A DNA stretch of 58,780 bases, filler included, from Dugesia japonica (lineage: Eukaryota): assembly GCA_001938525.1 (NCBI GenBank). It is 6 parts of 6 records of this genome, joined end to end, with 100 filler letters (N's around TTAATTAATTAA, not from the genome) between each part and the next. Parts side by side here need not be neighbours in the genome. Positions count along the whole stretch, not along the records: positions 30,079 to 39,716 come from MQRL01583982.1; 5 more parts are not named here. One strand, given 5' to 3'. The translations under genes and the position numbers were made by a program. A model generated the notes under the pieces. That model saw only the letters and a list, made by a program, of their open reading frames with translations. It did no database searches and had not been told where the DNA came from. This document shows positions 18,250 to 43,967 of this stretch, piece after piece (position 1 is the stretch's first letter; each line of letters starts with the position of its first letter).

Positions 18250-19829
18250 AGCACTACATGTTGGGAACAATCCCATAACCATTGTCCATAACACTTTTCT
18301 TTCCTTTTTGTATTAATCAAAACTAGCTAATAATTGAGTCAGTAATATTTTGATTATTGGCACAATAAATATTATCCCAATAATCCTTAATGGATTAAAT
18401 TCCGTACTGTCTTCAGTTTTAATGCTGAAAAATTTCTCTGCAGGTAATCTCTCAGGAAAGCGTATCCACTTATTATTAGCCATTTTAAAAAAAGGTCCAA
18501 ATAAATTAGAACAGTTCAGTTTGTTCGGCACGAATCTTTTTGGTAATAGGTTGTATCTTTCTTTTCTCTCCGATGTAATCGATTTCCATCTTATTATAGC
18601 ATATTTTTTCTTTGGATAAAATTGCTTCCACTCGCCTACATTGATAAATGAACATAATTTCTCCAACAATACGTTCAAATTGGCCTTCTTCTAATGGTAA
18701 CACTGGTGTTACATTATCCTGGTTTTTTATCGCTGTTGCCAATTTTGTCCGTAATATTTCCCGATTTAATAAACAGTCATTATAAATCAGATCATGATAC
18801 ATTCTCTCCATAGATTTTTGGGTTTGGTGGTACTGAGTGTCCACTTTATTATTTAGATATAAATGTAACTTGGTGTCTTGAGGCATAACCCCATCTCTTG
18901 TCTTTTCCAGTCTTTGCTTTGATACGAAGATTCTATTGTAATTCGTTTTATAGGCAATTTCCCCACATTTTGCTTCAGATTTCTTTCGGATTAATTTTTG
19001 ATCATGTCATTTGCATCGGTTCCCATTAGTAAAATTGGTGTATCAGACCACAACAGTGCTTTCTCCTTTGTCCCCATTACTGCGTTTACTTTTCCGATGG
19101 CCGGCATTTTATCTTCTTTATTTGAGTCAACAATTTTCTTTCCTCGATGCGCATCAAACAAAACCTCTCTAAGAAACGACATAGTACATTCTTGATGATT
19201 GACTTGATATACTAAGCTGGACTCTCCCGTATTACACGAATTATCTGAGGCTAATCACATTGAATACATTTTCATATTTTTGGTCGTTGTATCAAATAAT
19301 GCATCAAATTCTTTTTATTCTGCCGAATAACTTTCTATGGCAACGACTCCATTCGCATAGCCTAAGGGGCTAGTATATTTTTCTTGTACGCAAATTCCTG
19401 TTGCATACGAAATAAATCCTGCTGCGAACAGACGAGTTTGTAATATTTGACCCCTTTTGGCATTAATTATCTTTCCGGTTGTAAATCCTGATTTGCATTG
19501 TTGTCGTGTGAGGAGAACGGTATTACTTCCATACCTGGGGATATTATTGCCGAATAACTACTTCCTTCACACCAATATACAAATACTTGCATTGTTACAT
19601 TACACTCCATGACCTTTGTCTTGTAATAATCTGATTTTTGATACACAAAATAACTCATCGATTTCTGTACTACTTCCAACTTTTCTGGATATGCTTCTGG
19701 ACATTTTTCTGCATCAATTAATGAATATACCGTTTCCCCGATATACATATGATCACAATCATAAGCTCGAATTGCTGCACTTTGGCCCATTAAGAACATT
19801 AAAATTAACACCATGAACATTGACTGCAT
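18250..19829 (-). pseudogene. Envelope glycoprotein, chuvirus G-like (class III fusion protein), with frameshifts and stops
   Basis: Signal peptide then IRAYDC...YSLIDAEKC...VYQKSD..TKVMECNV......WC..SSYS. Downstream pieces include KCGEIAYKTNY.RIFV, YLNNKVD...YHDLIYNDCLLNREILRTKLA, IVGEIMFIYQCRRVEA...CYNKMEI...QPITK and CSNLFGPFFK...W. The cysteine spacing resembles chuvirus-type glycoproteins. Confidence 0.75.
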
Positions 19830-19978
19830 ACTGCTGGTTCCTGTACTTCGATTTGTCTCGGTTCCGTATTCATCGATATAATCCTTTAATAACGCATGTA
19901 CTCGTTCGTTTAATTTGTGATGTGAATTTTATTTTGGTTTCATCTTTTTGATTATTCCGTTCCATCCACCGCCATTCA

Positions 19979-22900
19979 CTAACAACGGTTCAATCCGATC
20001 ATTTGTATCCCAACTATTGGCCAAGCGCTTAATTGAAATTTCATTCCCGGTCTACAACAGGTCAATGCTATTCGCGTTTGTTTTACTAAATATGCAAGTA
20101 CCACTAATAACCTTGGAGTCGTTGGACAATTTGACAATAGTTCTTGTACCTCTTTTTCCATTGTTTCTCGATCTTTGAGGGGTGTATATTTTGTAACTGG
20201 TAATTTTGCTATTATTGGTTCTAATATCGTTGCTATTTTTTTACATTTCATTGACAAAATTGTACTCCCAATCCATAGTTTTAAATCTGGATACAGCGCT
20301 AGTAATATCTGATGTACTCGTTTCTCGGTTGGTAACGTGTGTGGTCCTAATTTCTCCATTATTTCTGATGAAAATTCGGCCATTTGTTTATCTCTTGTTG
20401 GTTTTCTCCTCGTTGTACTACTTGCTGTGGCTTCTTTTTGTCGACCTCTTGGCTTTTTGTCCATCCACGTCTCTGCATCACACATCACTCGTTGATGTAT
20501 CTCATTATCGGTTGTATCATCTGTATTATCCGTTGTCGTTTTCACTTCTTCAAACATTGTGGCTGGCGGTATTATTTCGTCTGCAATTTCATCCATTTTA
20601 ACTGATATATCATCGTCCTCCTGATCTCAGTCTACTTGACTTACATTAAATCTTCCCTATCTCTTTAATTTCATTGGTATTTTTTACTCTGACGTTATCG
20701 CTGGTTCTATTTGTGTAATTTCGATTTCTTCATCATCTTCAAGATCTAAAATCTGTTCGATTATTTCATCTTCTGTAGTATTTTCTGCTGTTGACTCCTT
20801 AATTGGAGATTTCCTTGGTCGCCCTCTTGGTTTAGTACCTGCTTTGCTGGATCTTCCAGACTTCATTGGTTGTACAAATTATGTATCGATGTCTGACTTG
20901 ATCCTAATCCTGCTTGTGATTTACCTTTGATCTCCTTGGCTGGTAGTTTTCTCCTAATTAGTTTTTCACCACCTTCCGGTTTAATGTACATTTTATTTTC
21001 TACCTTTTGTCGGATATCCAATGTTCCGATGATATCGTTATACAATAATTCCCGATTATTCAATAGTAATACATATGGCAAATTGTATTCAAATTGTATT
21101 TTAGATTTCTTCTGCCTCACTGTCTTGTAAGACAAATTTGAAATTCTCGTTCCGTGACCATCCGGTTCCACGATTCTGAAGCTAAATCTAAGTGATGTCA
21201 GTTCCGCTTCTTCACACTTTTTCCATCTTGATATCAGCAGCTTAAATTTTTCTGGCCTCCATTTACATTCCTTTTTATATCTGGAGATTTCATAAGTTAA
21301 TGCTCTCAATTCCTCAATTGACAAATCACTCTGTAATAATTGATCTGCTAGATGCTCCACAGTAGTTTTATTTATGCTTTTCTCTTGAATCCTTTATATA
21401 AATTGATCCACTAGATCTGTTGAATCTCCATTACACTTCTTTGATTTACCAGTCATTACCGCTACCATTTTCTGCGATCTGCTCAACTCTTGATTTGATT
21501 TGTATTTTCAATGTAATCTTGGTCTCTGTTGTATTATTGCTATCTTTTCTCGATTTGCTAATTCTATTTAGTCATTATGTAGTTGCAATCCCCGTGGCAA
21601 CTTTGGATTGATATTATCGACATAATATTGCATTGTCTTTCTACAAAAATTCTGTCTAATTGATTTTAACGTATACGGTTTTCTCTCGTTTTCGCCACTT
21701 GCAAAAATATAGACATTCATCATATGACCTGGTCTCATCCGGCTTGATCTCTTTACTGGATACTCGTCATGATCCTCCGTGATCTCTCCTCCACAATAAA
21801 CTACAATATCCTCTCGTTTAGTAATTGGTGTATTCTCTTTTCCNNNNNNNNNNNNNNNNNNNNNNNNNNNNNNNNNNNNNNNNNNNNNNNNNNTGGTCTC
21901 TGTTGTATTATTGCTATCTTTTCTCGATTTGCTAATTCTATTTAGTCATTATGTAGTTGCAATCCCCATGGCAACTTTGGATTGATATTATCGACATAAT
22001 ATTGCATTGTCTTTCTACACAAATTCTGTCTAGTTGATTTTAACGTATACGGGTTTCTCTCGTTTTCACCACTTGCAAAAATATAGACATTCATCATATG
22101 GCCCGGTCTCATCCGGCCTGATCTCTTTACTGGATACTCGTCATGATCCCCCGTGATCTCTCCTCCACAATAAACTACAATATCCTCTCGTTTAGTAATT
22201 GGTGTATTCTCTTTTCCTTTCACTGTTTTTTTATTCAAATTTTTAATAATTTTCTTTATTACTTTACCCCAACGTTTCGTTTTAATATCGAACTCTTTAC
22301 TTGATTCATCAGGAAAATATACTGCTACCTGCACATCTTGTTTCGATATGGCATCTGCATGAGTTATTGTTAACGTATGTATGGGCGTATACAACGCTTT
22401 TCCTCCGATCATACACAATTGGTTCAATCGGTTTATTACCTCCTGAATATTCAACTCTGTCATTTGACTGTAATTCTCGTAAATTGTTAACGCCATTTTG
22501 CTGTAGTTTGTTTCAGACTTTTCCACGGTTCATTCTCGTTTTCTGTTTCTGCTATTCGTTCAATTTCCTCATCTGACATAATTCTCAAATATTCCATTTT
22601 ATCTATTTCATTTAAATACACATTTCTCGTTTTTGTTCTAATTCAACTAATTGATTGTAATTCAAATATTTTCGGTTTTCCATCATCCAATTCCAAAGTT
22701 AATTCAGTAATCAATCGTAACTCAATCACATGTTGATCCCCTTTATTCAACTTGTCTTTTTGTATAATCATATAATCACACACAATTTGATATTTCTCAA
22801 ATGTTTTCTCTAAAGGTAATTTACTCAATATCGCTCGCAATTCACTCACTTTGTGCTTTAACATCATCTTGCTCTATCACTCTGGTTCGAGATCACAAAA

Positions 22901-23490
22901 CATAATCTTTGATAGGCTTTGGCCATATTAACTCATTTAATGCTTGTAAAAATCCACCCACAGTAGTATCTTGCAGCTCAATCTTCCTGGGTATTTCTTG
23001 ATATTTCAATTCAGTTGAATCTTCATCCGTGGCCGGCTCGTAGGCATTAATACTATAGTCGTTTGGTTTTTTATGATTTTGAATTTCTAATTCGTATTCC
23101 TGTGATTGAAGAAACCACGTCTCACTCGTGTATGCATCCAATTTGCCTGACTCCATCAATTCCAACACATGGTTCATCATTGCCCAATATGCTTCTCGGT
23201 AAAAAACTATCTTGATGGTTTGTGTCATTGTAATTTTATCCTCCATCTGTCTCGTTATCGCCGTGCTTTTTGCTTTTAATTTTGCTGATAGCTCTANTTC
23301 CATTGGATGAGCTCTCATCATATTTATCTGTCCTCGATTATTCTCGCGCTTTTGCATTCTCTCCCTTGCCACCTGCTGCTCTTCCAATTGTTATTGCAAA
23401 TATTCCTGCTCTTGTTTCAACTTGTCATACACTCGCTGTTCTGTCTCTTCTTGCCTTCGCCTATCTTGTTGCATAAAATTCACTTGTTGT
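19979..23490 (-). pseudogene. Uncharacterised accessory coding region of the retroelement (probably one or two long ORFs, now fragmented)
   Basis: Consecutive minus-strand ORF fragments 22893-23387, 22643-22867, 21942-22526, 20863-21360, 20684-20866 and 19979-20596. Contains the AT-hook KPRGRPRK. No protease, RT, RNase H or integrase motif recognised. Confidence 0.6.
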
Positions 23491-23499
23491 TGACTTTGG

Positions 23500-24601
23500 T
23501 TTCGATTATTTTTTATCTGGTTCCTCAATTTATCATTTTCGTCCATCATTTTACCAATAACCTGATTATTTCTCGATTTATTATTGTAGTTTGCATTAGA
23601 ATTTTCATAGCTCGATCTCTGATTATTCTGGAATCAATTTCTACTCGTATGGCCTGGTTTGTTGAATGTATAACACACTGGTGATTTTGTGATGAAACAA
23701 TTTTCCGCTTTATGTCCTGGCTTCTGGCAACTTGTACAAACCATTGTTGATCTGCAGTCTCTTGCATAATGTCCAATTTTCCCAAAATTATTACTCGTGA
23801 TTGCTGCCACGCTCCTTGTCTATTTTCTCCGTTTGATCTCGAATTATTATTTGGTTGTCGTGGTGGGGGTCTATTTTGATCTGGTGACAGTTCTCTTAAT
23901 AATAGTTGAGTTCTGGCTGGTATGAAATCTGCTATTTTCGGCTCGCTTTGTTCCTCCGCATTCTGTTCCTCAATTTTGAAAACATTTGATTGTTTTTGAT
24001 TCATGTCTACTTTATGCGCCACCATTGCTGCATTTATCGCCATATCAACTGTCTTGGATTGAGATAGATTTACCCACTTTTTCCCTTTTGCGTTTCGAAG
24101 TCCTTTAATTAAGATACCAAGTATCGTTGGATCATTCAATTTATCTTTTAGTGCTAATTTACCGAGCTTACATAATTCTGTTGCGTAAGCCTGAAATGTT
24201 TCATCTCGCAGTTGCCTTCAACCTACAAATTCTTGAATTTCTTGTCCTTGTAACATCAAGGGTTTGAAGTTTTCCAATAATACTTCCTTCGCTTTTCCCC
24301 ATGTATCAACGGGATCTTTAAGGTCACTAATTTTATCCCAATAAATAGTTTTAGCTGAATCCCTCAAGTATATAGGTAATCGATCTGCTGCTCTCTTGTC
24401 ACTCCATTGACACGCTAGTATATGTATTTCATATGCTGCAATAAAATCATTTAATTTCTCAGGTTGTCCATTAAAATAATCTCCATTGAACTCCGTTTTC
24501 CACTCTGGACTCCGCTTTGACTTATATCCACTTGTACTCTTTTCATCATTTGACAATTTAGTATTCTCCTCGGTTTCCTTTTCTTTATCGGTGGTTGACA
24601 T
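23500..24601 (-). pseudogene. Ty3/Gypsy-type gag (capsid plus about three zinc knuckles)
   Basis: FNGQPEKLNDFIAAYE....CQWSD..AA..LPIYLRDSA..YW.....TWGKAKEVL...F, an in-frame stop at 24218-24220, then RQLRDETFQAYA...IKGLR. After a frameshift: NFGKIGHYARDC, CTSCQKPGHKAENC, CYTFNKPGHTSRN. Confidence 0.85.
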
Positions 24602-25564
24602 GGTATTGGTATCACTTGATGCTGAACTTGATTCCGAGTAATGAAGAATTCTACTTGATGCTCTTGTCGTAGCTATACTATCACTAACTGATTTAGATTC
24701 ATATAGACTTTCCAGATCAATATATTCTAAAGAATTGGCTCTTGAGTGATTTGATTCGGTTATGGTATCAAATTCTCTTTGTACGTCGTCATTTGACGGG
24801 AACGAACTGGGTGATTTGGATGCTGAAACTGATAAAGATTTGTCGAATTGCTGAGACGGTCTGTTGTACGAGANTGATCGCTTTACTTTGGCTGGATTAT
24901 GTCGTTTNATTACAAATGATCTTCTATGTTCAGTACTCTCTCTAAAATTATATCGGGATCCTTGATTATCTATGATTGTTTATTTGGTTGGTTCGTAGTT
25001 GGATTGGTTTGTTTTGATCTATTCAGTTGTTGGAATATGGATTGTTTTGGTTTCTGAAATTAAATAATATGGCCCTACGGCTTCTGCACGCATTCATTAA
25101 TTGACTACTTCTAACTACTTTTATTTCCGATTGATACTTCTAATTACCATTTAATACACTACTATACATTACCATACTTTATTTCTATTACTTCAGCAGC
25201 ACATTTACGTAATTTACTTTTATCACTCAATCGTTTATTATACATATGCAGCAATTTTATCTGATTATGTCATCAGGAATTCTCCAAAAGAAAGTTTCAA
25301 TAGTACTTTCAATATTCACCGTTTTGAAAAAGCTCAACTCAGAAATCATTAATTCCAATTATAAATCGTACAATTTAACAGCTTAAATCACTCTTGTACT
25401 CAAGTTCCTCGTAATCATTCACCCATAATTAATGTAGATTCTCCGATGTGCCTTTGACACCTTATTTGAACAGACTATCATTAATTCGTGTCGTATTTTT
25501 ACTGTAATTGATTCCTCCGTTGAGTTCCTCACCACTTCCTTGATTAACGAATTCCTTCATTCCT

Positions 25565-26230
25565 CATAGAACATTCCTGACTGTTCCTAGCAAACTTTCA
25601 TCGATGAAAGTTCTTTAATTTACTGAACGCCTCTAATATCTCGCCATATAATTGATTAACTCATTAATTTTATTTCTACTCAACATTTCGCATTGGAACA
25701 ATTCCGCCTGATCCTGGCAATTTGTTTTCCGAACAAATTTCATAATTAATCAATACTCAATTTATCTCCATTTAATTTCTCATAATAGAACAATCCAGCC
25801 TGTTCCTGGCAATTTATCTTCCGAATAAACTTTTATAACTAATTGACGATTAATTCATTTCAACTTTATATTTCATGTTGTGACAATCCCACCTGCCCAT
25901 GGTAGTTTATCCTCCGAATAAACTTTTAATATCAATTAACAATCACTTTATTTCATTTCCCTCTCATGTTGAAACAATTCCGCCTGTTTCTGGCAGTTTA
26001 TACCCCGGATAAACTTTTGCAACTTATCAATGATTAAATTATCTCCACTTTGCATTGTCCATTTGTAGAACCATTTACTTTATTTAGACGTGATTCATTT
26101 TCTCTTAAAATCATTTCAATTACTAGTTTCTCGGCTATACCTCTTTCTTCACCACTTCACATTAGTACTCCTCAATTATCAACAATGGAACTCTTGCGCC
26201 GGTTCCTGGCAAATTTCCTTGTGAAATTTT
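25565..26230. repeat. Degenerate ~92 bp tandem repeat array in the element leader
   Basis: Core gaacaattccgcctgttcctggcaattt...ccgaataaactttt at ~25697, 25788, 25881 and 25972, with more diverged copies at ~25570 and ~26188. Confidence 0.8.
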
Positions 26231-26290
26231 GTAAGTTCAATTCTCTCCAACAATAATTATCAATAAAATTCTCCTCAACTAATTCGATTT

Positions 26291-26400
26291 AACTATACCC
26301 TCGGATAGTTTTATTATTTTTTTCCAATAAACTATACACTCGGATAGTTGTATTATTTCTCTCCATTAAACTATACACTCGGAGAGTTTTATTATTTTCG
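26291..26400. repeat. 39 bp tandem repeat x3, each with a hairpin
   Basis: AACTAT-AC(C/A)CTCGG-ATAGTT starting at 26291, 26330 and 26369; the third copy has one stem mismatch. Confidence 0.85.
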
Positions 26401-29169
26401 ACCAGATCTTCTTTAGTTCTCTTTTCGGTGGCCAACCGACAAGTATCCGGAATGCATTGCTGGTAATTAACTCACTACTCCAATATTTGCTTCAATATAT
26501 TTCATTTATTTTCGTTATTATCTTTCCTTCAAATACATTTCCGTCTTTTTTCACAACAGTTTATTTGTTTTAACACTCTCTCTATGTAGCCGGTAGTCTA
26601 TTTTTTCAGCTCCAGCTGGGTGAAAATTTCGATCCTCAATTAACAATAATACTGTAATATTTCAATTCTTGAGTCATTTGACAGTCTATTTCGATTCAGC
26701 TCCAACCGCTCGCTAATGTGAAGGTTCACAGTCAGAATCCCATGATCCAGCTGATATGTAACTACGACGCTACCCGCGATCGCATTACTAAAATAAATTT
26801 CCAAAACTAAACAACACTACTGATGCCACATGTGGGCTAACTATTGTACCATCTTGTCAACACTGAGTCCTCTGATTGCAAGATAACACGGACAATGTGC
26901 GACCTTGTCCTACTGGGATGTTTCACCCTCAATTCTAAGGCTTTGTAGAGCTACGGGTAGTTAGCTGTAGAGTGTGAGTGTCAAGGCGCCCTCACGCCAA
27001 CCGAGCGCCATAAGTGGTCAGCTTAATAGACGCAATGCTCGTTTCCCGCTCTTACGTTTATTCCCCTGGAATTTCCTGAGTTTATCTCTCCTGAATTAAA
27101 CTCCATTTTCCCGGCGTGGAAGTCAGACAAAGTATCCAACTTCCGAGATCGGTACTCCTTATCCGAAGCGTTGAATCTCGAAATCTGTCCCAGCATATCC
27201 ACGGAAGACCATCCACTCCAATAACTACTTCGAAGATTCCTGTCCCTAGTTCAATAACAATTTCAATCATTTCAGTCATTAGACGATCATTGTAGCTGTC
27301 CCTCCAAAGTTGATCAGGCTTCTGGTTCTAGCTTACTGATCACGGGCCCTATTTTCCAAAGTGACATCCACCATTACGACATCTTTTTCTTGGGTGTTTC
27401 ACATATCTACGGTCACGCTCGAAATTGTCTCTCTCCAAATTACTGTAATAAAATTCTCCAACAACATTTAAATCTAAATTCAAAATTACTTACTCATATG
27501 AAACTCAAAGTTAAATCACGATTAATATTCATTAACTCGCAACCTTTACCAATTAATTTCTTCAATGTTGACAACATTATTCCATTATCGTTTCATATGA
27601 CTCCGTAACCATAGAACCCCACTGTTACACCTCGTCCGCATCTCCGTTCATTTTTCGATCGAATTCTCGGTTACCACTCACTTGGGTGGCCTCTCTGTGT
27701 TGACTGTCCGATACCAATGCTGCACTTCTTGATAAGGCATAGCAATTTCCCCTCCAAATAAATCTCATTGATTAATTCCATTATTTCTTTTTAACTCATT
27801 TGTCGCCTCTCCTTTTCTCAAATTTATTAGTTTCTCGTCAATATCTCATCTCAAAATTATTCTCTTAATATCTAGTAATCTCATTGCTTTCAGTTACTCC
27901 TACTTCGTTGCTTGTAGATTATCATTACCACGCAAATTATTCGTTATGCTTCCAAAACAATTAAGCATATTAAATGGATAAAATGACTGTTTATATTGAA
28001 TAAATATAGTAAAATTAGTGACTAGATTTAATCTAATAAGTATTTTCCATGACAAAAGTATTTCTCTGGTAAAACTTGTATTTTCTATTATAAGTTCATA
28101 CTTTTTCTATTATAAAGCTAGTACTTTCAACGATGAACCTTTATTTTCTAATAGTGAAATTCTCAATAACAAAACTATTAAATAATGTATAAATTATAGT
28201 CTAATGATTGATTTTGCTAACAATGTAACTCATAATTAGGTATCTGTTTATCTAAAAGAAAACGAAACCCATGGAAATCCAGGCGTAAGCAAAGATAAAA
28301 GCAAATATTGAAGGATTTTATTGAAAAGAATTTGAATATCCTACTAGATAAAACCATTATATTTATGTTGAAACCTATAATTTCCATAAAAAAGGACAAA
28401 AATGGGGGAAATAACCAAAAAATGAGGGAAAGCGACAAAAACAGGTTAAAGGGAGAATTAAGAGAGAAACTTTAAATTGATAAAGGACTAAAAATCATAT
28501 AAAACTATGGAAAATGCTATGAGAAGCGACTAATGTTAAAATTAAAGTATGATCATTTTTTAAGAAATTCTTTAGCAAATAGACCATCACTAGGAAATTT
28601 CATTAACTAAAATTAAATTAAATTCCTTAGAAAATTAACCAAAAAATGACTTTAATTAACTATAATTGACTGATTAAATCATTTAACCAAGATTACCATT
28701 ACCTTAGAATATTTTAACCGATTCATCCGAAGATTACCCAGAATTATCCAAAAATCACCAAATAGTGACTATTATTGACCAAAACTGAGCATTGTCAGTA
28801 AATAAATGACCACTATGCGCAAATAATTTACCAAGATTCGATCTCTTCGAGTAATTATTGACTATGATTGTACAAAACTGACTTCATCGAGTAAACCTTT
28901 GACCGAATTCACCTCAAAATTGTTCAAATTCAACCAGCCTGAAGAAAAATTTGACCGTACCAAAATTAGCCATATTCGACCTGACAGAGTAAAATATATC
29001 CAAATTCACCTAAAACCACTCAAAATAAGACCGAATCAACTATCCCGAGGAAAACTTTAGTGGATTTGACTTCACCGAGCGAAAATTTAAACAAATTGAA
29101 CTTTTATTTATTTAAAAGGATTATTTAAAAAATTGACTGATTACGTAAAATCTGTATGAAAACACAAAT

Positions 29170-29978
29170 CCATTGTATAAAGTTTCTGAGCCACTTACGT
29201 AAGAAATTTGATACTACTTAATTCGATTTCGTTATATTATAGAAATTTTTTTTCTAACTAAAAAGAAAGGAAAAATTCAGAGCCACTTCAAAGATTGATT
29301 TTTGGAAGGTCATTCATTTGAAAAAAGAGTGCAAAACACGATGGAGTAGCCTATTGTGTATGATGGAAAGATTTCATTTGTTAAAAATTTGTATTAAAAA
29401 TACACTATTTTTTTGANGATTCGTTACAAATAGANGAATATGAGTATGAAATTGTTTCACATTTAGTTTGTGTTAAGTCCAATTATCAATATACTTAATG
29501 ATAATTTAACAACTGCAGATATTGCATTAGAATTTATGTTGAAAAGCTGGAACAATAAAATTTGAACATCAGTTGCGAAACTATTTCAGCTGTAATTCTT
29601 CAAATTAAAAAGAAGAGAACTCAATTAAGCAGCTTAGCTCAATATATTCACAACAATCAATGATTCAATGAAAATGACTGAAGCTTTTATATCATTCGCA
29701 AATACTGAAAACAAACAGCTTATGTTGGAGCGTTTACAGCAATAAAAAATACAACCAATTTAGTAGCTAAAATTTTTAAGGAAGCTGATATATATACTTT
29801 ATAGTGAGAATTCTATGAGTGAGCAATCGAACCAAGCCCAGGAAAAAGGTTTTATGTCAGCTAGAAAACTTCCATCGCGAGTTGAAAACACTTATCAAAA
29901 CTAAAAAAAGAAATGTCGTTATTTGAAAGTTGTGTCATAATAAAGGACTATCTGCAAAGAGTTTATGATTTTTTAATA
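29170..29978 (+). mobile_element. hAT-superfamily transposase remnant
   Basis: Manual translation gives LKKECKTRWSSLLCMMERFHLLKICIKNTL (~29318-29410) and LTTADIALEFML (~29507-29545); TRWxS..MxxRF is the hAT signature. Confidence 0.8.
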
Positions 29979-30078: not shown

Positions 30079-30330
30079 AATTGTAATGTGATTTACATAT
30101 CACAAACATATTATGATTTAGATAAAAATTCAATAAGAAATAATAGTAATTGTTTTATTTTCTTTAAACTTGGTAAAAGAGATAAGGATAATGTTTATCA
30201 TGATTTATTCAGTAATATTTTTAATTCAAAAGAAGAATATGACTTTGAAACCAATCACCATTGGAAAACAAAATATAATTATTTTTATCTAGATAAAGAA
30301 AAAGAAATGTTGGTGGATTCACTATTCTAG
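30079..30330 (+). CDS. FtsK/A32-like packaging ATPase, C-terminal part (5' truncated)
   Basis: NCNVIYISQTYYDLDKNSIRNNSNCFIFFK matches the conserved sensor Q / arginine-finger region of Polinton ATPases. Confidence 0.8.
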   Translation, partial: NCNVIYISQTYYDLDKNSIRNNSNCFIFFKLGKRDKDNVYHDLFSNIFNSKEEYDFETNHHWKTKYNYFYLDKEKEMLVDSLF

Positions 30331-30447
30331 CTAACGAAGCCGCTTCGCGGCGCTATTAGCTAAGCTGTAAGCCGAGCTGTAAGCCGAGCGAAGCGAGGCT
30401 TCTGATCTAAACCAACTAAATGTTAAAGCTAAATTATTATTTAAAAA

Positions 30448-30972
30448 ATGTCCACAACTGAACAAGAATTATTAAATTTAATAAATAGTGACAAAAGTAA
30501 ATCAATTAAAATTAATGGTAAAAATTATTGGATTGGAAAAAGAAGTAAAGATTTAATAAAACAAAGGTTAGAAAAAGAAGGTGGACTATTTCCATTATTA
30601 GGTTTAATACCAGCAATTTTAGCAGGAATTGGTGCAGCTGCTCCTACTATTGCAGGAGTAACTGCAGCAGTTGCAGGAACTGCAGGCGCTGCTGCTGGTA
30701 TTGCAAAAGTAGTTGCAAATTCAAGAGAAGCTAGTAATAAACTTAAAGAAGGTGAATTATTAAATGAACAGATAAAGTCTGAACAATTAAAGTCTGGCAA
30801 AGGTATTTATTTAAATCCTTATCAAGGATCAGCTATTCACAAATATCTAAAACCTTATTTACTTGATAATGTTAATACAAAGAAATTTAAAAAAGGAATT
30901 GAAATTATTCCAAGTGGTAATGGATTATATTTGAATCCTTATCCTCATAATGAGAACCTAAATAAAACTTGA
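30448..30972 (+). CDS. pX/mu-like membrane-active core protein precursor
   Basis: KEGG/LFPLLGLIPAILAGIGAAAP resembles the adenovirus pX GG/xLPxLIPxIAAAIGA segment. It has an Ala/Gly-rich helix and two SGxG(I/L)YLNPY repeats. Confidence 0.7.
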   Translation: MSTTEQELLNLINSDKSKSIKINGKNYWIGKRSKDLIKQRLEKEGGLFPLLGLIPAILAGIGAAAPTIAGVTAAVAGTAGAAAGIAKVVANSREASNKLKEGELLNEQIKSEQLKSGKGIYLNPYQGSAIHKYLKPYLLDNVNTKKFKKGIEIIPSGNGLYLNPYPHNENLNKT

Positions 30973-30977
30973 ATAAA

Positions 30978-31944
30978 ATGGATAATTGGATTGATGATAG
31001 AATAAAATGTTTAAGAGATCAAATTAAGGCAAGAGATGATTATGATAAATTAATAGTTGAACAAGTTTCATTTAACAACAACTTTGGTTCAACTGGACAG
31101 TTTTCAAATCAGCTGTCAGCTAATTTAAATAAAGCTGAACCTTTAAAAGCAGAAGCTTTAAAAGAATCTATTAAAGCTGAACCAACAAAAGAATCTGCTA
31201 AAGAATCTGCTAAAGCTGAAAGAATAACAAGTGATAATTTTAGAATAAAAAAAGAAAATTTTCCAGTAACTAAGAAATATGATTTACCACCAACTTTAAT
31301 TCCTTATATTATTTTTAATGATGATGATTATTTTGATTCTTTTAAAATAGGACCAGATAATATTGAATTAAAAGAAAGAGTAGAGGATGGAGAAAGAAAG
31401 AGATTTTTTCTTATAAATGGAACAAAAGAAATAGATTTTAATCAAGAAGTATTAAATTTAATGTTTGGTTATGGTTNNNNNNNNNNNNNNNNNNNNNNNN
31501 NNNNNNNNNNNNNNNNNNNNNNNNNNTTTTCTTATAAATGGAACAAAAGAAATAGATTTTAATCAAGAAGTATTAAATTTAATGTTTGGTTATGGTTCGA
31601 GTGATAATGAAGCTAAAAAACTTTATTTAAATAGTTTTAATTTTAATGCTCCTAGTTCAAGTAAATATATTAAAACATGTAAGAAAAGAAGAATATTTGA
31701 TGAAGAGTTTAAAGAATTAAAAAACCCTCCAAAATATAAAGAAATTAATACTATCAAAACTAATTATGGTGAAGGTTTACAGAATCCAATTAAATTATTG
31801 GAAAAGTTTGTAATATTAACCAGTGCAATGAAAGCAGGACACGATAATCTGTCTAATGATTTTGTTAAAATAATAAACAAAATGTTGGATAATAAATTAA
31901 TAACAAAAACTAAATATGATAGATTAAAAGTTAAATACTTGTAA
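30978..31944 (+). CDS. Conserved Polinton hypothetical protein (split by an assembly gap)
   Basis: ORFs 30969-31562 and 31465-31944 overlap through a ~70 bp sequence duplicated on both sides of the gap. The C-terminus GEGLQNPIKLLEKFVILTSAMKAGHDNLSNDFVKIINKML resembles a recurrent Polinton protein tail. Confidence 0.65.
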
Positions 31945-31946
31945 GC

Positions 31947-32020
31947 CAGCGAAGCTGAGTAGCAGCGAAGCTGAGTAGCAGCGAAGCTGAGTAGCAGCGA
32001 AGCTGAGTAGCAGCAAAGCA
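31947..32020. repeat. 16 bp tandem repeat CAGCGAAGCTGAGTAG x4 plus a partial copy
   Basis: GCGAAGC cores at 31949, 31965, 31981 and 31997; each unit folds as CAGC-GAA-GCTG. Confidence 0.95.
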
Positions 32021-32113
32021 AAATTAAACTATAATAAATTACTTATATAAAATTACTTGTTAGAAACCTTATTTAAGAAACCTCACTCGCTACGCTCGGT
32101 TTAATCATTTTCA

Positions 32114-32938
32114 ATGTCTCATCAATTTTTAATATATGGTCAAGAACATGAATTGGAAACAAAATTATCAAATGGTTTAAATTAAAAAGGTGAATGGGAA
32201 ATTGCTTTAATTTGGTTCACTACATCCAACATGATTTTAAATATAAATAATAAAAATAATAAATACAAGATCCAACTAGTTGGCAATAGTACATTAAAAG
32301 AATTAACTCCAGGGGCTTATGAAATTAAGCAAATAGCTGAGCGTTTGCTCGTTGATTGTCTATTGTTAACTTTTGATGTATCAACAGGTAAAGCAATGCT
32401 TCAACTATATATTGACAAGGAAAATAAAACTAATCAAATCAATCAAGTTAATCAAGTAAAGCTTGAATTTGATGATATTTCTTTTTTTCATACTATATTG
32501 GGATATAATGTTTTGACTGATGGTTATTTACTTACTAATCAACTTACTAAAGATAAAACTTTCATTTCAGATAATAAAATAAACATTATTGACATTAACA
32601 CAATTAATATTATTTGTAATATTGTTCAAGGTAATTATTTAAATAGTAAAGAATATAANNNNNNNNNNNNNNNNNNNNNNNNNNNNNNNNNNNNNNNNNN
32701 NNNNNNNNAAGGTAATTATTTAAATAGTAAAGAATATAATTTATTACATAGTTTGCCAATGGGAACAGTTCCTTATGGATATCGAATAACAGACAGACCA
32801 GCGAATCCAATTTACTCTCAAATTAATACAGATTTCATATCTAGAATAAAATTAAATATAGTAGATGAGAATTTTAATACAATAGACTTTGATGGTGAAA
32901 AGATTAATATTTTAGTTCATCTTAGAAAGGTTAAATGA
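32114..32938 (+). pseudogene. Minor capsid protein (penton, single jelly roll) with a premature stop
   Basis: The ATG at 32114 is in frame with ORF 32231-32938 but is interrupted by TAA at 32183-32185 (GLN*KGEWEIAL). Motifs PGAYEI, INIICNIVQGNYLN, VPYGYRITDRPANPIY and IVDENFNTIDFDGEKINILVHLR. Confidence 0.8.
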
Positions 32939-32949
32939 TTTAGATAAAA

Positions 32950-33453
32950 ATGAATAAAGAAACCTCACATACTTGGTCTATAGTAGATTTTCTAAAAACA
33001 TTTGGTATATCATCCACAACTAATTTTGATTTGTTAGAAATTGCTAAATTTTTAAATATTAAAGTAAATGTTGTAATGAAGAATGAGTGGGCTAGCGCTG
33101 AGCGCTCATCGGCTGACAGCTGGCCAGTACAAAACTGGATAATAAACTATCAAAATTCAAATCAAAAAGGTAGTCATTGTGTTGCTCTAGTTCAATTAGA
33201 TAAACCAAATGGATCTTGTAAAAAGTATTATTTTGATTCCTATGGACTACCTCCGCTAGATTGTATCAAGCAATCAATTGGAAAATGTACACTAAAATGG
33301 AATAGCGTTCAAGTTCAGCCATGGCAAACTAAAATATGTGGGATATTATGCATTTACTTTATTTATAAACTAGAACGTGGAGGTAGCCCTTTTGATTTAC
33401 AATTTAATGCAATAATTAAAGAATTAAAAAATACATTCAAAGATTGGCTTTAA
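32950..33453 (+). CDS. Adenain/Ulp1-like cysteine maturation protease
   Basis: INYQNSNQKGSHCVAL, YYFDSYGLPP and QVQPWQTKICGILCIYF supply the His, Asp, Gln and Cys residues. Confidence 0.9.
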   Translation: MNKETSHTWSIVDFLKTFGISSTTNFDLLEIAKFLNIKVNVVMKNEWASAERSSADSWPVQNWIINYQNSNQKGSHCVALVQLDKPNGSCKKYYFDSYGLPPLDCIKQSIGKCTLKWNSVQVQPWQTKICGILCIYFIYKLERGGSPFDLQFNAIIKELKNTFKDWL

Positions 33454-33484
33454 ACTTATCACTATAAACTTATCCCTATAAGAA

Positions 33485-34696
33485 ATGACTCACAGCTTTT
33501 CAAATGTTATAATGAATAGGTTTGGGGAAACATTGGACAATAAAAATACTAACCAATTACTAGAAGCATTTGATGGTAAAGTAGAAAGTAAAATTAATTT
33601 AAAATTAAAGATTCATGAACATGAAGAACAAGTTAGAAATAAAAAGTATGATGATAGAGAATATGTTGATAAAGTTGTTAATAAACAGATTGATAAAGTT
33701 GTTAATAAACAGATTAAACAGCTGAGCGCTCAGATAATTAAACAACAAGTTACTATTGATACTTTGATAGAAAGTAACAAAGTTCAATTTAGTGAAAGTA
33801 AAAAGGAATTTATTAATTTTAAAAGTATAATGATATTTCAATTAAATAATATGATTAATAAAGTTAATAATGATTACATGAATAAAGTATATGTTAATGC
33901 CAATAACTTGATTAAACAAATTGAAAAGTTGACAAGTAAATGTGGTCAAGAAAAATGTAATGACATTCAAAGACAGTTTGATAAATTAAAATATGAATTT
34001 AATTATTATCTACAAAGTAAAAACGATCCATTACCTGCATTAGAATCAATATTTTTTCAAAGAAAACACATGTATCAAAATGATAGAGAATATCTTTACA
34101 AGATAATAACCAAATTGAAACAAGAAAGAAGTAGAAATAAACTTTATTCAATTAAATTAATCACAGAGGTGAAAGAATCAATAGAAAATTATTTTCCTTA
34201 TGAATTAGAAAAGGATGAAATTAAAAACAAGAATGTATTATTTAAATTAACAATAGATAAAGTTATTGATGATTTACCAAGTGTTACTATTTTTAAAATG
34301 AAAAGATTTACTGCATATAGACAAGGATTTTATTTTGATAAAATATTAGGAAAAGGGAATACTTATTATCTATTAGAAAAAGATGCAACATTTAATTTTG
34401 AATTATTAAAAGAAGAAGAAGAATTATATTTCCTTTTTATATTTGGCTTTCCAGGACAAAATCATGATTTTGCTCCTTACTATTTTATTAATGAAGTTTT
34501 AATAAAAAATGAATCTACTCCAGTAGTTTTTAAAAACTTTAAATTTAAAACAAAAATTGATAATAATTTAACAAGATTATTTTATATTAGTAGTAAAGAT
34601 GTAAATAAAAATTCATCAAAATGGTTAAAGTTTTCAATAACCCTTAGTACTGATACTTTTTTAAAAACTATAATAATATCAACTAAAAAGTTTTGA
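33485..34696 (+). CDS. Hypothetical 403-aa Polinton protein (coiled-coil N-half, beta-rich C-terminus)
   Basis: Intact ORF with a tandem DKVVNKQI repeat; no recognised domain. Confidence 0.7.
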   Translation: MTHSFSNVIMNRFGETLDNKNTNQLLEAFDGKVESKINLKLKIHEHEEQVRNKKYDDREYVDKVVNKQIDKVVNKQIKQLSAQIIKQQVTIDTLIESNKVQFSESKKEFINFKSIMIFQLNNMINKVNNDYMNKVYVNANNLIKQIEKLTSKCGQEKCNDIQRQFDKLKYEFNYYLQSKNDPLPALESIFFQRKHMYQNDREYLYKIITKLKQERSRNKLYSIKLITEVKESIENYFPYELEKDEIKNKNVLFKLTIDKVIDDLPSVTIFKMKRFTAYRQGFYFDKILGKGNTYYLLEKDATFNFELLKEEEELYFLFIFGFPGQNHDFAPYYFINEVLIKNESTPVVFKNFKFKTKIDNNLTRLFYISSKDVNKNSSKWLKFSITLSTDTFLKTIIISTKKF

Positions 34697-34721
34697 ACAA
34701 GGCTAAATTATTTAATAAAAA

Positions 34722-35420
34722 ATGGAAGCTAGTAACCTATACCCAAATTTAGATAAAGATTTTAATAATGATAAAGATTTTTATATTGATAATGATAATG
34801 ATCAACAACCATCTCAGTTAGCTGGAAGTTTAACAATACAAGAATTGAAAAATAAATTAAACCAAACAAGAATTAAAGATTTTGAGAATGATCTAGAATG
34901 GATAGGTGATAAACTAAAACATTATAATAAATTAAAAAGAAGGTGGTCAAAGTTTGATAATGGTATTAGATTTACAGATGTTGGTATTTCTACGCTTGTA
35001 GGAGTTGCTTCAGGAACAATAATATTAATGTCAACTTTATCTTTTACAATACCTTTAATTGTTACTGGAATAGTTACAGGTATTCCAATTATATATTCTA
35101 GTGCTCATGGATCTTTGAGAGTTGGTTTAATAAAAAATAAAATTTCCAAGTATGATAATAAAATTAAATTATTAGAAGAAACTAAAAATAAATTATTCCT
35201 CTTTCATATTAAAGCTTTGGAAGATAATGAATTAAGTAATGAAGAAATTAAAATTAGTAAAGATATAATTGTTAAACTTAAAGAACAACTTTTAAATATT
35301 AAAGGCAAACCACAAGTCAACAAGTTGAACAATGAACTGCCTAGCGATCTGCTTAACCAGTTGTCCAACTTTATGCAACAAATATCAAGCAGTCAATCAA
35401 ATAAAAAATTTATAAAATAA
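34722..35420 (+). CDS. Polinton membrane protein: coiled coil - hydrophobic hairpin - coiled coil
   Basis: Intact 232-aa ORF with N-terminal LYPNL and a central hydrophobic stretch VGISTLVGVASGTIILMSTLSFTIPLIVTGIVTGIPII. Confidence 0.75.
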   Translation: MEASNLYPNLDKDFNNDKDFYIDNDNDQQPSQLAGSLTIQELKNKLNQTRIKDFENDLEWIGDKLKHYNKLKRRWSKFDNGIRFTDVGISTLVGVASGTIILMSTLSFTIPLIVTGIVTGIPIIYSSAHGSLRVGLIKNKISKYDNKIKLLEETKNKLFLFHIKALEDNELSNEEIKISKDIIVKLKEQLLNIKGKPQVNKLNNELPSDLLNQLSNFMQQISSSQSNKKFIK

Positions 35421-35486
35421 TTGACTAGTAAAAAAAAATGATCATGTTGGTGTACAACCCTTAGGACCAAAAGATTTGTATAAGAA

Positions 35487-38400
35487 ATGGCGACTAGTAT
35501 TGATCACCATGCACAAGATCACCATGCACAAGATCACCATGCACAAGATCACCATGCACAAGATCACCATGCACAAGAATATGTCGACAAATTTTGTGTA
35601 ATCTGTAATCAAACTTTTAGATCAGTTTATCACTTTGAAACTCATCTAAAAGGTAAATCTCATTTAAAAAAAGTAGAATTAAGTAATTTGGGAAACTTTT
35701 GGAGAAGATGTCACATTTGTGATAGGGATTTTGATAATTTAGTAAACTACAATAGACATTTAAATGGTCGTGCACATATTAATAAAGTAGCAGAAAGTAT
35801 CTCTCATCGGGAAAGACCCAACGAGAATTTATCTCTTGTAAATTTATTCAGAGAATATATTAAACCTGTAGGAGAATATAATGTAGAGACATGCCAGAAT
35901 TCAATGATTAAGTTGAGAAAAGATTTTTTAATGTATAAAAATGAAAGTCAACCAGCAATTGAAAACATTTATCAATTCAATGAAAGAATTAACTTTAATC
36001 TTTTAAAAGAATATTCACCACAAATGAAAGAAATGGTTAGTATTTTTTTCAATAAATTTCAAAAGGCAGCAGTTTCAATAACTTGTACTACAACATATTC
36101 AAAGGATTATGTTGGTGAAGATAATATAACTAATCAAACTTGGGTAAAGAATTATGATGCTCATTCACAGAAAATTACAATGTCTAGTCAAATTAATTGT
36201 ACAATTGATGAAATGTTGNATCAACTTTCTGAAGATATTTTCACAACAGAGATTCAAGGATCAGGTTGGTCATTTGAAAAGTTTAATTCTTTTACAATTG
36301 AACTATCAAATTACAAATCTCTAGTTGGTCAAGGATATATTCCATTACCTATTATATGGAAAAATATTCCTGGAATTTTAAATATCATGAATCCAGAAGA
36401 TGATTTCAACTGTTTTAAATATTGTATAATGGCTCATCTTGATCCTTCTCTCAATGATTCTGTTTATAATTATCAATTTCCACTTTTAGATTTAGATTGT
36501 CCAATTAATTGGAAAGGAATAACAATGCCAATGGTTATAAAAAATATTCCAAATTTTGAAAAACAAAATAATTTTCTAGTCAATGTCTTTGAAGTAATTC
36601 CAAGTAATACTAAACCAATAATACAAAAACTATATTCATCTCACTTGGAAACTAATCCTCATCACACAGTTAGGAAATGTAATTTGTTATTATACAATGA
36701 CCATTCTCAATCTCATAATGGACACTACATTTTAATTAGAAATTTAAACAAAATAAATAACAAATCTAAACATTGTAATGAATTGTGTATTAATTGCATG
36801 ACCTGGAAAAGGGATAAGAAATCATTAATTAATCATCAAGTACTTTGTTTAAAACAGAAAAGTGCAGAAATTAAGTTTTCTTTCAACAAAACATATTCTT
36901 TTAATAAATATTACATGAAGAATAAAAATCCATTCACAATTTACTTTGATATAGAGACTTATAAAAATAGTGATAATGAATTAATTCCATTCTGTTTAGG
37001 ATTATATCTTGTAAGTGAACATCCATTAGTTAAAAATATTTATAATTCTTTCACAGGACCCAACTGTATTTCCAAATTTATTGATTGGTTATTAAAATTT
37101 AATGATTTATTTGAAAAGTTAATTAATCCATCTAGTTGTAAAAGTTATCAATCCATACCACTAAATGATAAAGATTATAGCAATAAAGATTACAATTTAG
37201 CATCTGGTAAAAAGTGTTATTATTGTGAGTTAAACACACCACAGTGTGATTATCTTTCAGTAAATCCATGGACAGGTGTTAATAGAAGTTATGCACATGC
37301 TGATTGTATCAAGATTTATGAGAATTCTAAAAGGTATTTCTTTCCAGTTTATGCACACAACTCTAGTAAGTTTGATAACCATTTCATTTTTAAGGAATTG
37401 TGTAAATCTTATCCAGAAGAAATTACTAATCTGATTCCAATAAATGATGATGTTTATATTTCATTTTCTATAAAAAGAATGAGATTTCTTGATTCTTTAA
37501 GAATGTGTAGTGGTCATTCAGTTGAAAAGATGGGGCAGGATTTATTAAAAAGTAAAAATCATCCTCATTTGGATAAATTTAATCTCAAACCAGCAAAAGG
37601 AATTTATCCATATGATTATGTAAGTGGTGATAATTATTCAGAAGTTAAAAAGAAATTAATAAACTTTACTCCAAATATTGATGACTTTTATAATGTATTG
37701 CGTCAATCTAAACTATCTGAATCTGATTATCAAATATTCCTAAAAGATTATTCAAAATTTAACAATCTAATGGAATATACTCTGCATTACATGAAACTTG
37801 ATGTAATAATTCTAGCAGACTTTTTCGAAAACTTTAGGACTTTATCACTAGAAAGGAATCAAATTGATCCAACTTATTGTTATTCAGCTCCAGGTCTTAC
37901 ATGGGAAATTGGAATGAAAGTTTCAAAAGTTAAATTATTAAATGCTAATGAATCAAACTTTGACATGTTTCTAACTATAGAACAAGGAATACGAGGTGGT
38001 TTTTCAGGAGTATGCGGCAACCGACATGTAGTAGCTGATGAAAATCATACAATAAAATGTCTAGATGAGAATAGTTTATATGCTGCATCAATGACAAAAC
38101 GATTACCTTGGGGTGAAATGAGTTGGGATTATGACAAAACTTATGTTAGAACTAATGATAATTATACAGTTAATGATCATGGTGAAAAGATTTACATGGA
38201 TTACATCTATACAGTTGATTTAATATATCCAAATGATATAAAAGAAAAGACAAAATATTATCCATTAGCTGTAGAAAAAAACTCAATTAGCTATAAAGAT
38301 CTAAGTGATTATCAAAAACATTTATTAAAAATTATGAATCAGAAACAATCTACTAATGAAAAATTAATAATGACACAGAAAAATAAATATAATTATGTAG

Positions 38401-39311
38401 TTCTAGGTAAAGTTTTGGATTTATATATTGATCAGGGAATGATTATATCAAAAGTTCATAGTAAAATAAATATTCCTACTAAATATTGGTTAAAAGATTA
38501 CATCCAATCTAATATTAATTCTAGAGATGCAGCTAAAGTTGATAATGATGATTTCAGAAATTCATTCTTTAAACTATTAAATAATGCATTCTTTGGCAAA
38601 ACTTTGGAAAATGTTAGAAATAGGGTTAATTTATTTATATCAAAGACTAAAAAGGAATTATTAAATCATGTTTCTAAACCAGGTTATAAGTCATCAGTTA
38701 TAATTAATGAACAAGTTGCTTTAATTAAATCATTAAAAAACTTGATTACTTATAATAAATTTCAATATATAGGATTCTTTGTTCTAGATTATGCAAAATT
38801 AATAATGTATGACTTTGTTTATAATCAATTAAATGTATTAATTCCAAATAAAGTCTCTGAGCAATGGAAAATACACTACTCTGATACTGATTCTTTAATG
38901 ATTGAATTTATACATCCAAACATGAATTGGGAAAAATTTAATGAAAAAACACAAATTTCAAATCTATTTGGTAATAATTTATTTCAAATGAAGGATGAAT
39001 ATCCAAATGAAATAATAAAAGAAGCATTCTTTATTAAAGCAAAATCTTATTATTTAGTAAAAGCTAATAAAGTTAATTCTAATAAAGATTTAAAGAAACA
39101 TAAAGGAGTTAGTAATACAAATAACTTTACAGTAAATCAATATAAAAGTGTTTTGTATAATGATTTAACAATAAAAGGAACAAATTACTCAATTAATTCA
39201 AAACTTCATAATGTAAAACAAACTAAACAGGATAAACAAGCATTAACTTCATTTGATGATAAAAGATTTATATTAAATAATGGAATAACTACACTACCAT
39301 TTGGATATTAA
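35487..39311 (+). CDS. Protein-primed family B DNA polymerase with N-terminal zinc fingers, 1274 aa
   Basis: ExoI YFDIETY, ExoII YAHNSSKFD, ExoIII YMKLDV, Pol A LDENSLY, Pol B KLLNNAFFGKT, Pol C YSDTDS, GSGW in the terminal-protein region, and C-terminal DDKRFIL.NGITTLPFGY. Open throughout with one ambiguous base. Confidence 0.97.
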   Translation: MATSIDHHAQDHHAQDHHAQDHHAQDHHAQEYVDKFCVICNQTFRSVYHFETHLKGKSHLKKVELSNLGNFWRRCHICDRDFDNLVNYNRHLNGRAHINKVAESISHRERPNENLSLVNLFREYIKPVGEYNVETCQNSMIKLRKDFLMYKNESQPAIENIYQFNERINFNLLKEYSPQMKEMVSIFFNKFQKAAVSITCTTTYSKDYVGEDNITNQTWVKNYDAHSQKITMSSQINCTIDEMLXQLSEDIFTTEIQGSGWSFEKFNSFTIELSNYKSLVGQGYIPLPIIWKNIPGILNIMNPEDDFNCFKYCIMAHLDPSLNDSVYNYQFPLLDLDCPINWKGITMPMVIKNIPNFEKQNNFLVNVFEVIPSNTKPIIQKLYSSHLETNPHHTVRKCNLLLYNDHSQSHNGHYILIRNLNKINNKSKHCNELCINCMTWKRDKKSLINHQVLCLKQKSAEIKFSFNKTYSFNKYYMKNKNPFTIYFDIETYKNSDNELIPFCLGLYLVSEHPLVKNIYNSFTGPNCISKFIDWLLKFNDLFEKLINPSSCKSYQSIPLNDKDYSNKDYNLASGKKCYYCELNTPQCDYLSVNPWTGVNRSYAHADCIKIYENSKRYFFPVYAHNSSKFDNHFIFKELCKSYPEEITNLIPINDDVYISFSIKRMRFLDSLRMCSGHSVEKMGQDLLKSKNHPHLDKFNLKPAKGIYPYDYVSGDNYSEVKKKLINFTPNIDDFYNVLRQSKLSESDYQIFLKDYSKFNNLMEYTLHYMKLDVIILADFFENFRTLSLERNQIDPTYCYSAPGLTWEIGMKVSKVKLLNANESNFDMFLTIEQGIRGGFSGVCGNRHVVADENHTIKCLDENSLYAASMTKRLPWGEMSWDYDKTYVRTNDNYTVNDHGEKIYMDYIYTVDLIYPNDIKEKTKYYPLAVEKNSISYKDLSDYQKHLLKIMNQKQSTNEKLIMTQKNKYNYVVLGKVLDLYIDQGMIISKVHSKINIPTKYWLKDYIQSNINSRDAAKVDNDDFRNSFFKLLNNAFFGKTLENVRNRVNLFISKTKKELLNHVSKPGYKSSVIINEQVALIKSLKNLITYNKFQYIGFFVLDYAKLIMYDFVYNQLNVLIPNKVSEQWKIHYSDTDSLMIEFIHPNMNWEKFNEKTQISNLFGNNLFQMKDEYPNEIIKEAFFIKAKSYYLVKANKVNSNKDLKKHKGVSNTNNFTVNQYKSVLYNDLTIKGTNYSINSKLHNVKQTKQDKQALTSFDDKRFILNNGITTLPFGY

Positions 39312-39716
39312 TCAGCAATCAATCAGTAATAACCAGCAATCAATCAGCAATCAACAGCATCCAGCAGTAATCAATCAGCAACCAGCAACAATTAGCAATA
39401 AAAAAAACCAAAAATATTTGTCTCTTTTTCACTACAATTTGCATTCAGTCTCGTACATCTTTCAAAAAAAACATGATTTTAATCATTTTTCACTACTTTT
39501 CGCATTCCGGATAGGACGACCAAAAACATCAAAAAAAAAAACATGATTTTCAATTTTTCATCAATAAAATTTTATGTGTAAAATAGTGATTTTTCAATTT
39601 TTCATTTTTTTCTAGTTTTTTACAGTTTTAACTTTTTTTTTCATTTTTTTCATCTTTTTTTTCACTTTTTTCACTATGAAAAAAAAATGAAAATTTATGG
39701 TCTGGGGGTCCCCCCC
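39312..39716. repeat. Low-complexity subterminal region of the Polinton (possible inner TIR)
   Basis: (aatcagc)-like repeats at 39310-39400, T-tract repeats, and a GC palindrome gggggtcccccc at the scaffold end. Confidence 0.45.

Positions 39717-43652: not shown

Positions 43653-43967
<315 letters not shown>

Follow-up and report, generated by a model that had tools for sequence, protein, structure and literature searches.

A Polinton-type gene block on a Dugesia japonica scaffold and the copy family around it

Do the genes at positions 30079 to 39716 of a 58,780-nucleotide (nt) stretch of Dugesia japonica DNA (assembly GCA_001938525.1; the whole stretch is called the window here) form a near-intact endogenous Polinton, as an initial annotation had proposed, and what kind of copy carries them? 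The window consists of six scaffolds separated by N44-12nt-N44 spacers, and the genes in question fill the fourth (MQRL01583982.1; 9638 nt, GC 25.8%). By every testable feature the element is an animal Polinton, of the Eupolintoviridae, formerly Adintoviridae. We consider it likely that the scaffold represents the right arm of a single young copy in the genome, of the eupolintovirid or adintovirus type, within a large and older multicopy family of an AT-rich invertebrate. The description 'near-intact' had to be given up, as the major capsid gene, the integrase, the P-loop of the ATPase, the second terminal repeat and a host junction are not on the scaffold.

Genes of the scaffold

Eight compact, intronless coding units were found, all on the + strand, in agreement with the co-orientation described initially. 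Direct Pfam annotation of the small open reading frames (ORFs) gave nothing above cut-off; among the eight units, Pfam names only the polymerase and its C2H2 fingers. The identities of the small ORFs come instead from profiles built from related viral-contig loci, in searches where two host proteins, included as controls, scored no better than E 0.04. The ATPase, penton and protease, together with a polymerase that carries terminal-protein and OTU domains, were recognized by profile and fold evidence, so the assignment to a Polinton/adintovirus-type gene block stands.

The scaffold begins within the C-terminal third of an A32/FtsK-like packaging ATPase (30079-30330), whose start is clipped by the scaffold edge. 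A profile of nine ATPase sequences matched here (E 3e-12, positions 151-225 of 242), and two of these nine homologs match Pox_A32 (PF04665); the P-loop part is absent from the scaffold and falls beyond its start. The next gene (30448-30972, 174 aa) encodes a pX-like core or membrane-active protein with a GGLFPLL motif and GxGxYLxP repeats, which matched a profile of three positional homologs (E 6e-7). The homolog in L015, one of the related loci, has a weak match to Adeno_PX (E 0.007, below cut-off). A conserved Polinton ORF of about 300 aa follows (30978-31944), spanning a run of 50 N (N50 gap) at 31477-31526; its C-terminal part matches a seven-homolog profile (E 2e-6), and its N-terminal part has no match. 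This ORF is probably PZ.

The minor capsid gene (32114-32938) has 1346 relatives at E<=0.001. A model in which X was placed at the breaks had a pLDDT of 83.4, and its top Foldseek match was the mavirus penton (E 1.5e-9), followed by adenovirus penton bases and Sputnik; the modelled fold is that of a single-jelly-roll penton, and the gene is interrupted by one stop. This in-frame stop, at codon 24, is the sole stop within any gene of the scaffold, and the penton cannot be produced from the copy as assembled. The gene also holds the second N50 gap (32659-32708). Both N50 gaps are bordered by duplicated sequence, of 71 and 31 nt, and are thus scaffolding artefacts rather than lesions, which leaves the penton stop as the single evident lesion, as had been claimed.

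Downstream lies an adenain-type maturation protease (32950-33453), which matched an 11-homolog profile at E 2e-21 with the His, Asp, Gln and Cys motifs aligned and kept. The Pfam match to Peptidase_C5 reached only E 0.097, and the protease found no meaningful match when its sequence was searched against the PDB. The gene contains a short in-frame GC-rich insertion near 33090-33125.

The ORF that follows (33485-34696, 403 aa) is an orphan: no homolog was found among 7119 candidates of 221-706 residues, in the Atlas or in 108 related loci, and a seven-sequence fibre-like profile did not match it. The loci L006 and L015 have fibre-like genes in the same place, immediately after the protease, and from position we would guess at a fibre or spike role. 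Between this ORF and the polymerase is a coiled-coil protein of 232 aa with two hydrophobic helices (34722-35420). It has homologs in L015, L031, L053 and L106 (E 1e-9 to 3e-5), matches an L006/L015 profile (E 3e-7) and falls with unnamed Atlas clusters at 0.92-0.93; from its sequence it is a putative conserved two-helix membrane protein.

The polymerase and its relatives

The largest gene (35487-39311) encodes a protein-primed family B polymerase (pPolB) of 1274 aa. The claim of a fully open 3.8 kb frame held: all 1274 codons are free of stops, with one ambiguous base, and shuffling the scaffold 200 times gave no stop-free run longer than 162 codons. PF03175 matched at E 6e-25 (88 bits) and zf-met at E 8e-8. 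Among 796 homologs the nearest is 33% identical, and a PDB sequence search with the polymerase profile gave no meaningful match. The exonuclease and polymerase residues D488/E490, D630, Y768/D772, D860, K1029/N1033 and D1133/D1135 are invariant in all 24 aligned sequences, and S259, C309 and H413 are invariant in 74 of 74 aligned polymerases.

The protein has two C2H2 fingers near its N-terminus (residues 37-59 and 75-97), followed by a terminal-protein domain (~154-278), an OTU domain (~287-422), the exonuclease with a nuclease-like insert, and the polymerase proper. We weighed the fingers as a novel feature and dropped the idea, since they occur in 10 of 120 homologs. Also at the N-terminus, a perfect in-frame 15-nt repeat (35502-35578, 5.1 copies) encodes His-His-Ala-Gln-Asp. 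A model of residues 101-436 (pLDDT 79) gave no Foldseek match at E<=0.001. In a wide structural search, the first domain had Y-family little-finger domains on top (Z 8.6, rmsd 2.9, 105 residues) and the second had many OTU proteases, the best of them at Z 6.7 (rmsd 3.4, 96 residues); both are middling values. Little-finger and OTU folds are those reported for the Polinton terminal-protein and vOTU domains, and the linking Ser of the Polinton terminal protein lies beside a Gly ahead of the last strand (PMC11071308); the first two domains here have both folds and the Ser-Gly feature. The models therefore point to a terminal-protein domain and an OTU protease joined to the N-terminus of the polymerase.

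The insert (37215-37313, residues ~577-609) is endonuclease-VII-like: its cysteines are kept, and the D/E-H-x-H motif seen in 114 of the 120 homologs is gone. In the homologs the insert is PF02945, and most of the top homologs have PF02945 rather than PF03175. The PF03175 score and the prevalence of PF02945 make the polymerase lean, tentatively, toward the Beta class (group 1), which is defined by a divergent OTU-PolB less than 30% identical to the PF03175 type. The PF02945 insert may be a mark of group 1, a link that we did not find in print, the Polinton papers examined making no mention of endonuclease VII. Group 2 polymerases (pPolB2) of nematode and oomycete Polintons with HNH or VSR inserts resemble the present one in carrying a nuclease-like domain within pPolB, but their catalytic residues are conserved (10.1101/2023.08.22.554363).

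A phylogeny of pPolB, proposed in the initial annotation as a check, was built with FastTree from 44 sequences (20 sequences taken from the 120 hits, 22 polymerases of the related loci, the window pPolB and a relic polymerase from another scaffold, described below). The window pPolB clusters with P0002-P0005 with support 1.0, on a long branch. The relic fell on a very long branch, and its placement was not used.

A scan of viral contigs with the single polymerase sequence found no relative; one with a 24-sequence polymerase alignment found 28 loci, several of which are near-complete Polintons with an rve integrase, a Pox_A32 ATPase and a PF21738 capsid. The loci L015, L006, L002 and L106 (IMG/VR and JGI contigs) share with the scaffold homologs of the ATPase, penton, pX-like protein, two-helix protein, ~300-aa ORF and protease, as well as a pPolB with a nuclease-like insert and an ATPase-penton-pX block. 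L015, L002 and L106 have both integrase and capsid, and L006 has, within its stretch, the capsid only. The order common to L015 and L006 is ATPase, penton, pX-like, whereas on the scaffold the pX-like gene and the ~300-aa ORF lie ahead of the penton and the protease lies ahead of the polymerase. The scaffold pPolB, moreover, groups with P0002-P0005 and not with the polymerases of these four loci.

The Adintoviridae (animal Polintons or Mavericks) have been renamed Eupolintoviridae, in the order Amphintovirales (PMC8502044, PMC12451622). The scaffold has in common with them an OTU-bearing pPolB, an adenain protease, an FtsK/A32 ATPase, a penton and a pX-like protein, with compact intronless genes, in a multicopy degraded family with a few young copies. 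It differs from them in lacking capsid, integrase and complete ends, in a pPolB that is 33% identical to its nearest relative, and in the orphan 403-aa gene. Intact vertebrate Mavericks share with it pPolB, ATPase, minor capsid, protease and probably PZ; an intact one is recognized by eight open core genes together with a terminal repeat at each end and a 6-bp duplication, all in one copy (PMC8097293). The scaffold falls short of these, having a penton with a stop and a clipped ATPase, with capsid and integrase off the scaffold.

Copy family, age and scaffold ends

Eight sequencing runs under one organism label, from four studies, contained 5-32% of the sampled scaffold words; no RNA run was among those listed as containing them. 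Four runs were aligned to the scaffold at 85%, among them X1, X2 and X5, which are DNA-type and come from three studies. The aligned contigs numbered 8552 (X1), 7860 (X2) and 8514 (X5), over all 30 bins. Roughly two thirds of them are below 95% alike, with indels and rearrangement joints; for X1, 815 are at least 99% alike, 1919 are 95-99%, 3591 are 90-95% and 2227 are below 90%. There are also pieces of 178-330 nt with 0-2 differences, at depth 2.6-6.3 (summed contig depth, here and below, is not copy number); such near-exact pieces lie at 31105-31331, 35720-35949, 36430-36674, 39290-39619 and 39425-39716. The window frequently shows the minority letter relative to the family contigs. The pattern is one of a large genomic family, older for the most part and with a rare young variant, and not of a single free virus.

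A free virus, exogenous or episomal, was considered as another source of the scaffold, as was contaminant DNA assembled together with that of the host. Neither scaffold end has host flank, the genes are compact and intronless, and adintovirus contigs with free ends have been described (PMC8502044). However, the DNA-type runs, of 2014, 2015 and 2025, show a diverged, indel-rich family and not one deep haplotype. The composition is also host-like, with GC of 22.6-26.7% in four of the five remaining scaffolds, and degraded relatives stand beside host genes on scaffold 1. We regard such an origin as highly improbable.

The scaffold copy itself shows little decay. Over its 8673 coding nt, 4.0-6.0% of substitutions are expected to create a stop, so that the one stop observed corresponds to 0.19-0.29% decay, with a 95% upper bound of 1.1-1.6%; at 5% decay, 17-26 stops would be expected. 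With one stop over this length, the copy has been out of selection only recently, unless the scaffold is a mosaic. The recent insertion proposed initially is in keeping with the low decay in that the copy looks young, but a short-read mosaic would look alike.

The scaffold might instead have been assembled from several young copies that resemble one another, as a mosaic or a collapse, and the openness of its frames would then overstate that of any single locus. This would explain the two N50 gaps with duplicated flanks, the ambiguous base in pPolB, and the thousands of related contigs found with no piece that spans the stretch and with only 16-32% of the sampled words in the listed runs. We nevertheless think it improbable: near-exact low-depth pieces occur across the scaffold, most of the family being 85-95% alike, and the letter in the window is often that of the minority, unlike in a majority collapse. 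Young copies would be needed even so.

Several observations weigh against a single young integrated copy. Integration of the scaffold copy is unsupported, as no host junction, target-site duplication or second terminal repeat was found within the scaffold; the lack of a spanning piece and the low share of scaffold words in the runs, noted above, leave room for a mosaic; and the penton stop is hardly seen elsewhere. At that codon the contigs lack it in all 433 depth units of X1, all 338 of X5 and 123 of 132 of X2, and it is present in at most 8.8 of the 132 in X2. The stop may be private to the scaffold copy, or an assembly error.

Of the 13.6 million reads in one poly(A) run, X10, only 87 could be aligned to the scaffold; 84 of these were partial and 65 less than 90% alike. 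The expression check suggested in the initial annotation thus found next to no expression in this single library. Planarian Polintons, which belong to the same transposon class as the scaffold element, are reported to be targets of SMEDWI-2 silencing and have been treated as a repeat class (PMC8532177), and the near-silence in this library would fit such silencing.

At about 9.6 kb the scaffold is shorter than a typical Polinton of 13-25 kb. Its left end interrupts the ATPase. The right end (39312-39716) is some 400 nt of non-coding sequence, delimited from sequence, tandem-repeat (TRF) and folding analyses, with short repeats, a T-rich stretch and a terminal G5/C7 hairpin (fold z -2.1). It is probably within the terminal inverted repeat. 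No partner of this repeat was found inside the scaffold, and none of the viral contigs contains an exact copy of the terminal 17-nt word. One contig of run X5 is identical to 39425-39716 and continues for 24 letters past the scaffold end.

A profile from five PF21738-type capsids found no major capsid gene on the scaffold, and an integrase profile matched nowhere in the window (best E 0.92). Of the related loci, 36 are at least 10 kb long; the integrase is present in 26 of these, the capsid in 13 and both in 12, the capsid counts being lower bounds from the five-sequence profile. Because these genes are frequent among the related loci, they would most likely lie in the missing left arm. The alternative is a family deficient in capsid or integrase, a self-synthesising transposon or one helped in trans, whose morphogenesis genes are relics. 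It would account for the absence of both genes from the scaffold and for the broken state of the window's sole major capsid gene, and capsid-less Polintons do exist (PMC4028283). Deletion and rearrangement joints are also common in the family. Yet it is the assembly, and no repeat, that cuts the left end within the ATPase; the element retains its penton, protease and pX-like genes, with a penton stop not found in other copies; and the capsid-less elements of PMC4028283 tended to lose protease and ATPase too. A deficient family therefore seems to us very unlikely.

Among the joints, 30825-36538, 33441-38486 and 38772-32850 recur in several or all of the DNA-type runs, the first at depths of 134, 42 and 102 (X1, X2 and X5). 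They suggest that the family has given rise to derivatives with internal deletions or rearrangements.

GC-rich palindromic patches lie at 30331-30410, 31947-32019, 32085-32097 and 33090-33125, the last being the insertion in frame within the protease. The first, intergenic, contains GCGAAGC/GCTTCGC-type words and reaches a 50-nt GC of 0.60, against 0.26 for the scaffold; the second is a 16-nt GC-rich tandem repeat of 4.6 copies (TRF score 139, 98% matches). All five GCGAAGC words of the window fall in this scaffold. In other copies the patch at 30331-30410 is missing or divergent, and in some the repeat at 31947-32019 is swapped for a short stretch. Since the patches fold no better than shuffles (z -1.5 to +0.2, with -1.5 for 30331-30410), no hairpin function is claimed.

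For a complete member of the family, a cycle can be modelled on the known group (PMC8502044, PMC4028283, PMC11071308). At the inverted repeat, the pPolB would use a serine in its own terminal-protein domain as the primer; the OTU domain would then cleave the primer domain away, and the excised linear DNA would be copied by strand-displacement synthesis. The A32-type ATPase would package this DNA into a capsid that is built on double jelly rolls and has pentons at its vertices. The pX-like core proteins would be matured by the protease, and a retroviral-type integrase would insert new copies. The combination of ATPase, protease, capsid and pPolB had been put forward as defining a virion-competent Polinton. 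Protease and pPolB are present, but of the ATPase there is only the C-terminal third and of the capsid only the minor protein, so that virion competence finds no support; the scaffold alone is no demonstration of virion competence, integration or expression.

Relics elsewhere in the window, and significance

A major capsid pseudogene, annotated initially at 1-1078, was recovered on scaffold 1 at 3-1078 on the - strand, with one frameshift and one stop, and clipped by the scaffold edge. Three pieces match the five-capsid PF21738-type profile (E 2e-13, 1e-10 and 1e-6), and the middle piece also matches PF21738 itself (E 3.4e-6). The pPolB relic of a different lineage, given as 6880-7700, is real, with a narrower detected span of 6982-7506 (+ strand; profile E 6e-30; 7 stops). 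It is 37% identical to the window pPolB over 119 aa, which ranks the latter 121st of 121, all 120 database polymerases matching better; a second pPolB lineage is therefore real. The claim of more than one Polinton lineage thus holds for the polymerases, while the capsid pseudogene, assignable to neither pPolB lineage, is by itself no evidence for it.

Three short AT-rich ORFs (1295-2202, - strand) lie upstream of the capsid pseudogene and in the same orientation; one has a weak helix-turn-helix match (E 0.002), and none matches the related loci. They are probably Polinton accessory genes. Between the relics of scaffold 1 is a divergent TGF-beta/BMP-like ligand (2694-3236, + strand; PF00019 E 2e-10; BMP2-like chains E 1.5e-4), probably a host gene. 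The idea of this gene as Polinton cargo was dropped, as the relics are opposed and 6 kb apart, with a reverse-transcriptase-like fragment between them, itself read by eye and without a Pfam match. Other animal host genes in the window are an uninterrupted dual-specificity phosphatase (16815-17639, - strand; PF00782 E 1e-26) and a canonical-looking histone H4 (43653-43964, - strand). Scaffold 3 carries a decayed, giant LTR-retroelement-like region (18144-29978, - strand) with a gag-like frame followed by three CCHC-like knuckles, a reading made by eye with no Pfam support. About 5 kb downstream of the gag-like frame are pieces of a Monjiviricetes (mononegavirus-type) fusion glycoprotein (PF24664 E 2e-15 and 1e-12). 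The region resembles the planarian Burro elements as described in PMC6431247.

Hundreds of comparable contigs have already been catalogued (PMC8502044), and Polintons are already known as a planarian repeat class (PMC8532177). New here are the divergent branch and one orphan gene. We found no flatworm description of this family's virion genes in the literature searched; Repbase, subscription papers and bioRxiv supplements lay outside that search and may have one.

The case for particle formation by animal Polintons still depends largely on gene content and on signs of selection (PMC4028283, PMC8097293), and a tractable animal with young copies that carry virion genes is useful for this question. 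A bolder possibility, which we hold only tentatively and think rather unlikely, is a deeply divergent flatworm lineage that is still amplifying, with full virion genes in other copies, a motif-less nuclease insert and the 403-aa protein as a lineage-specific receptor-binding fibre. If it were true, with an amplifying full-virion lineage under somatic PIWI restraint in a stem-cell-rich animal, existing datasets could address the particle stage directly.

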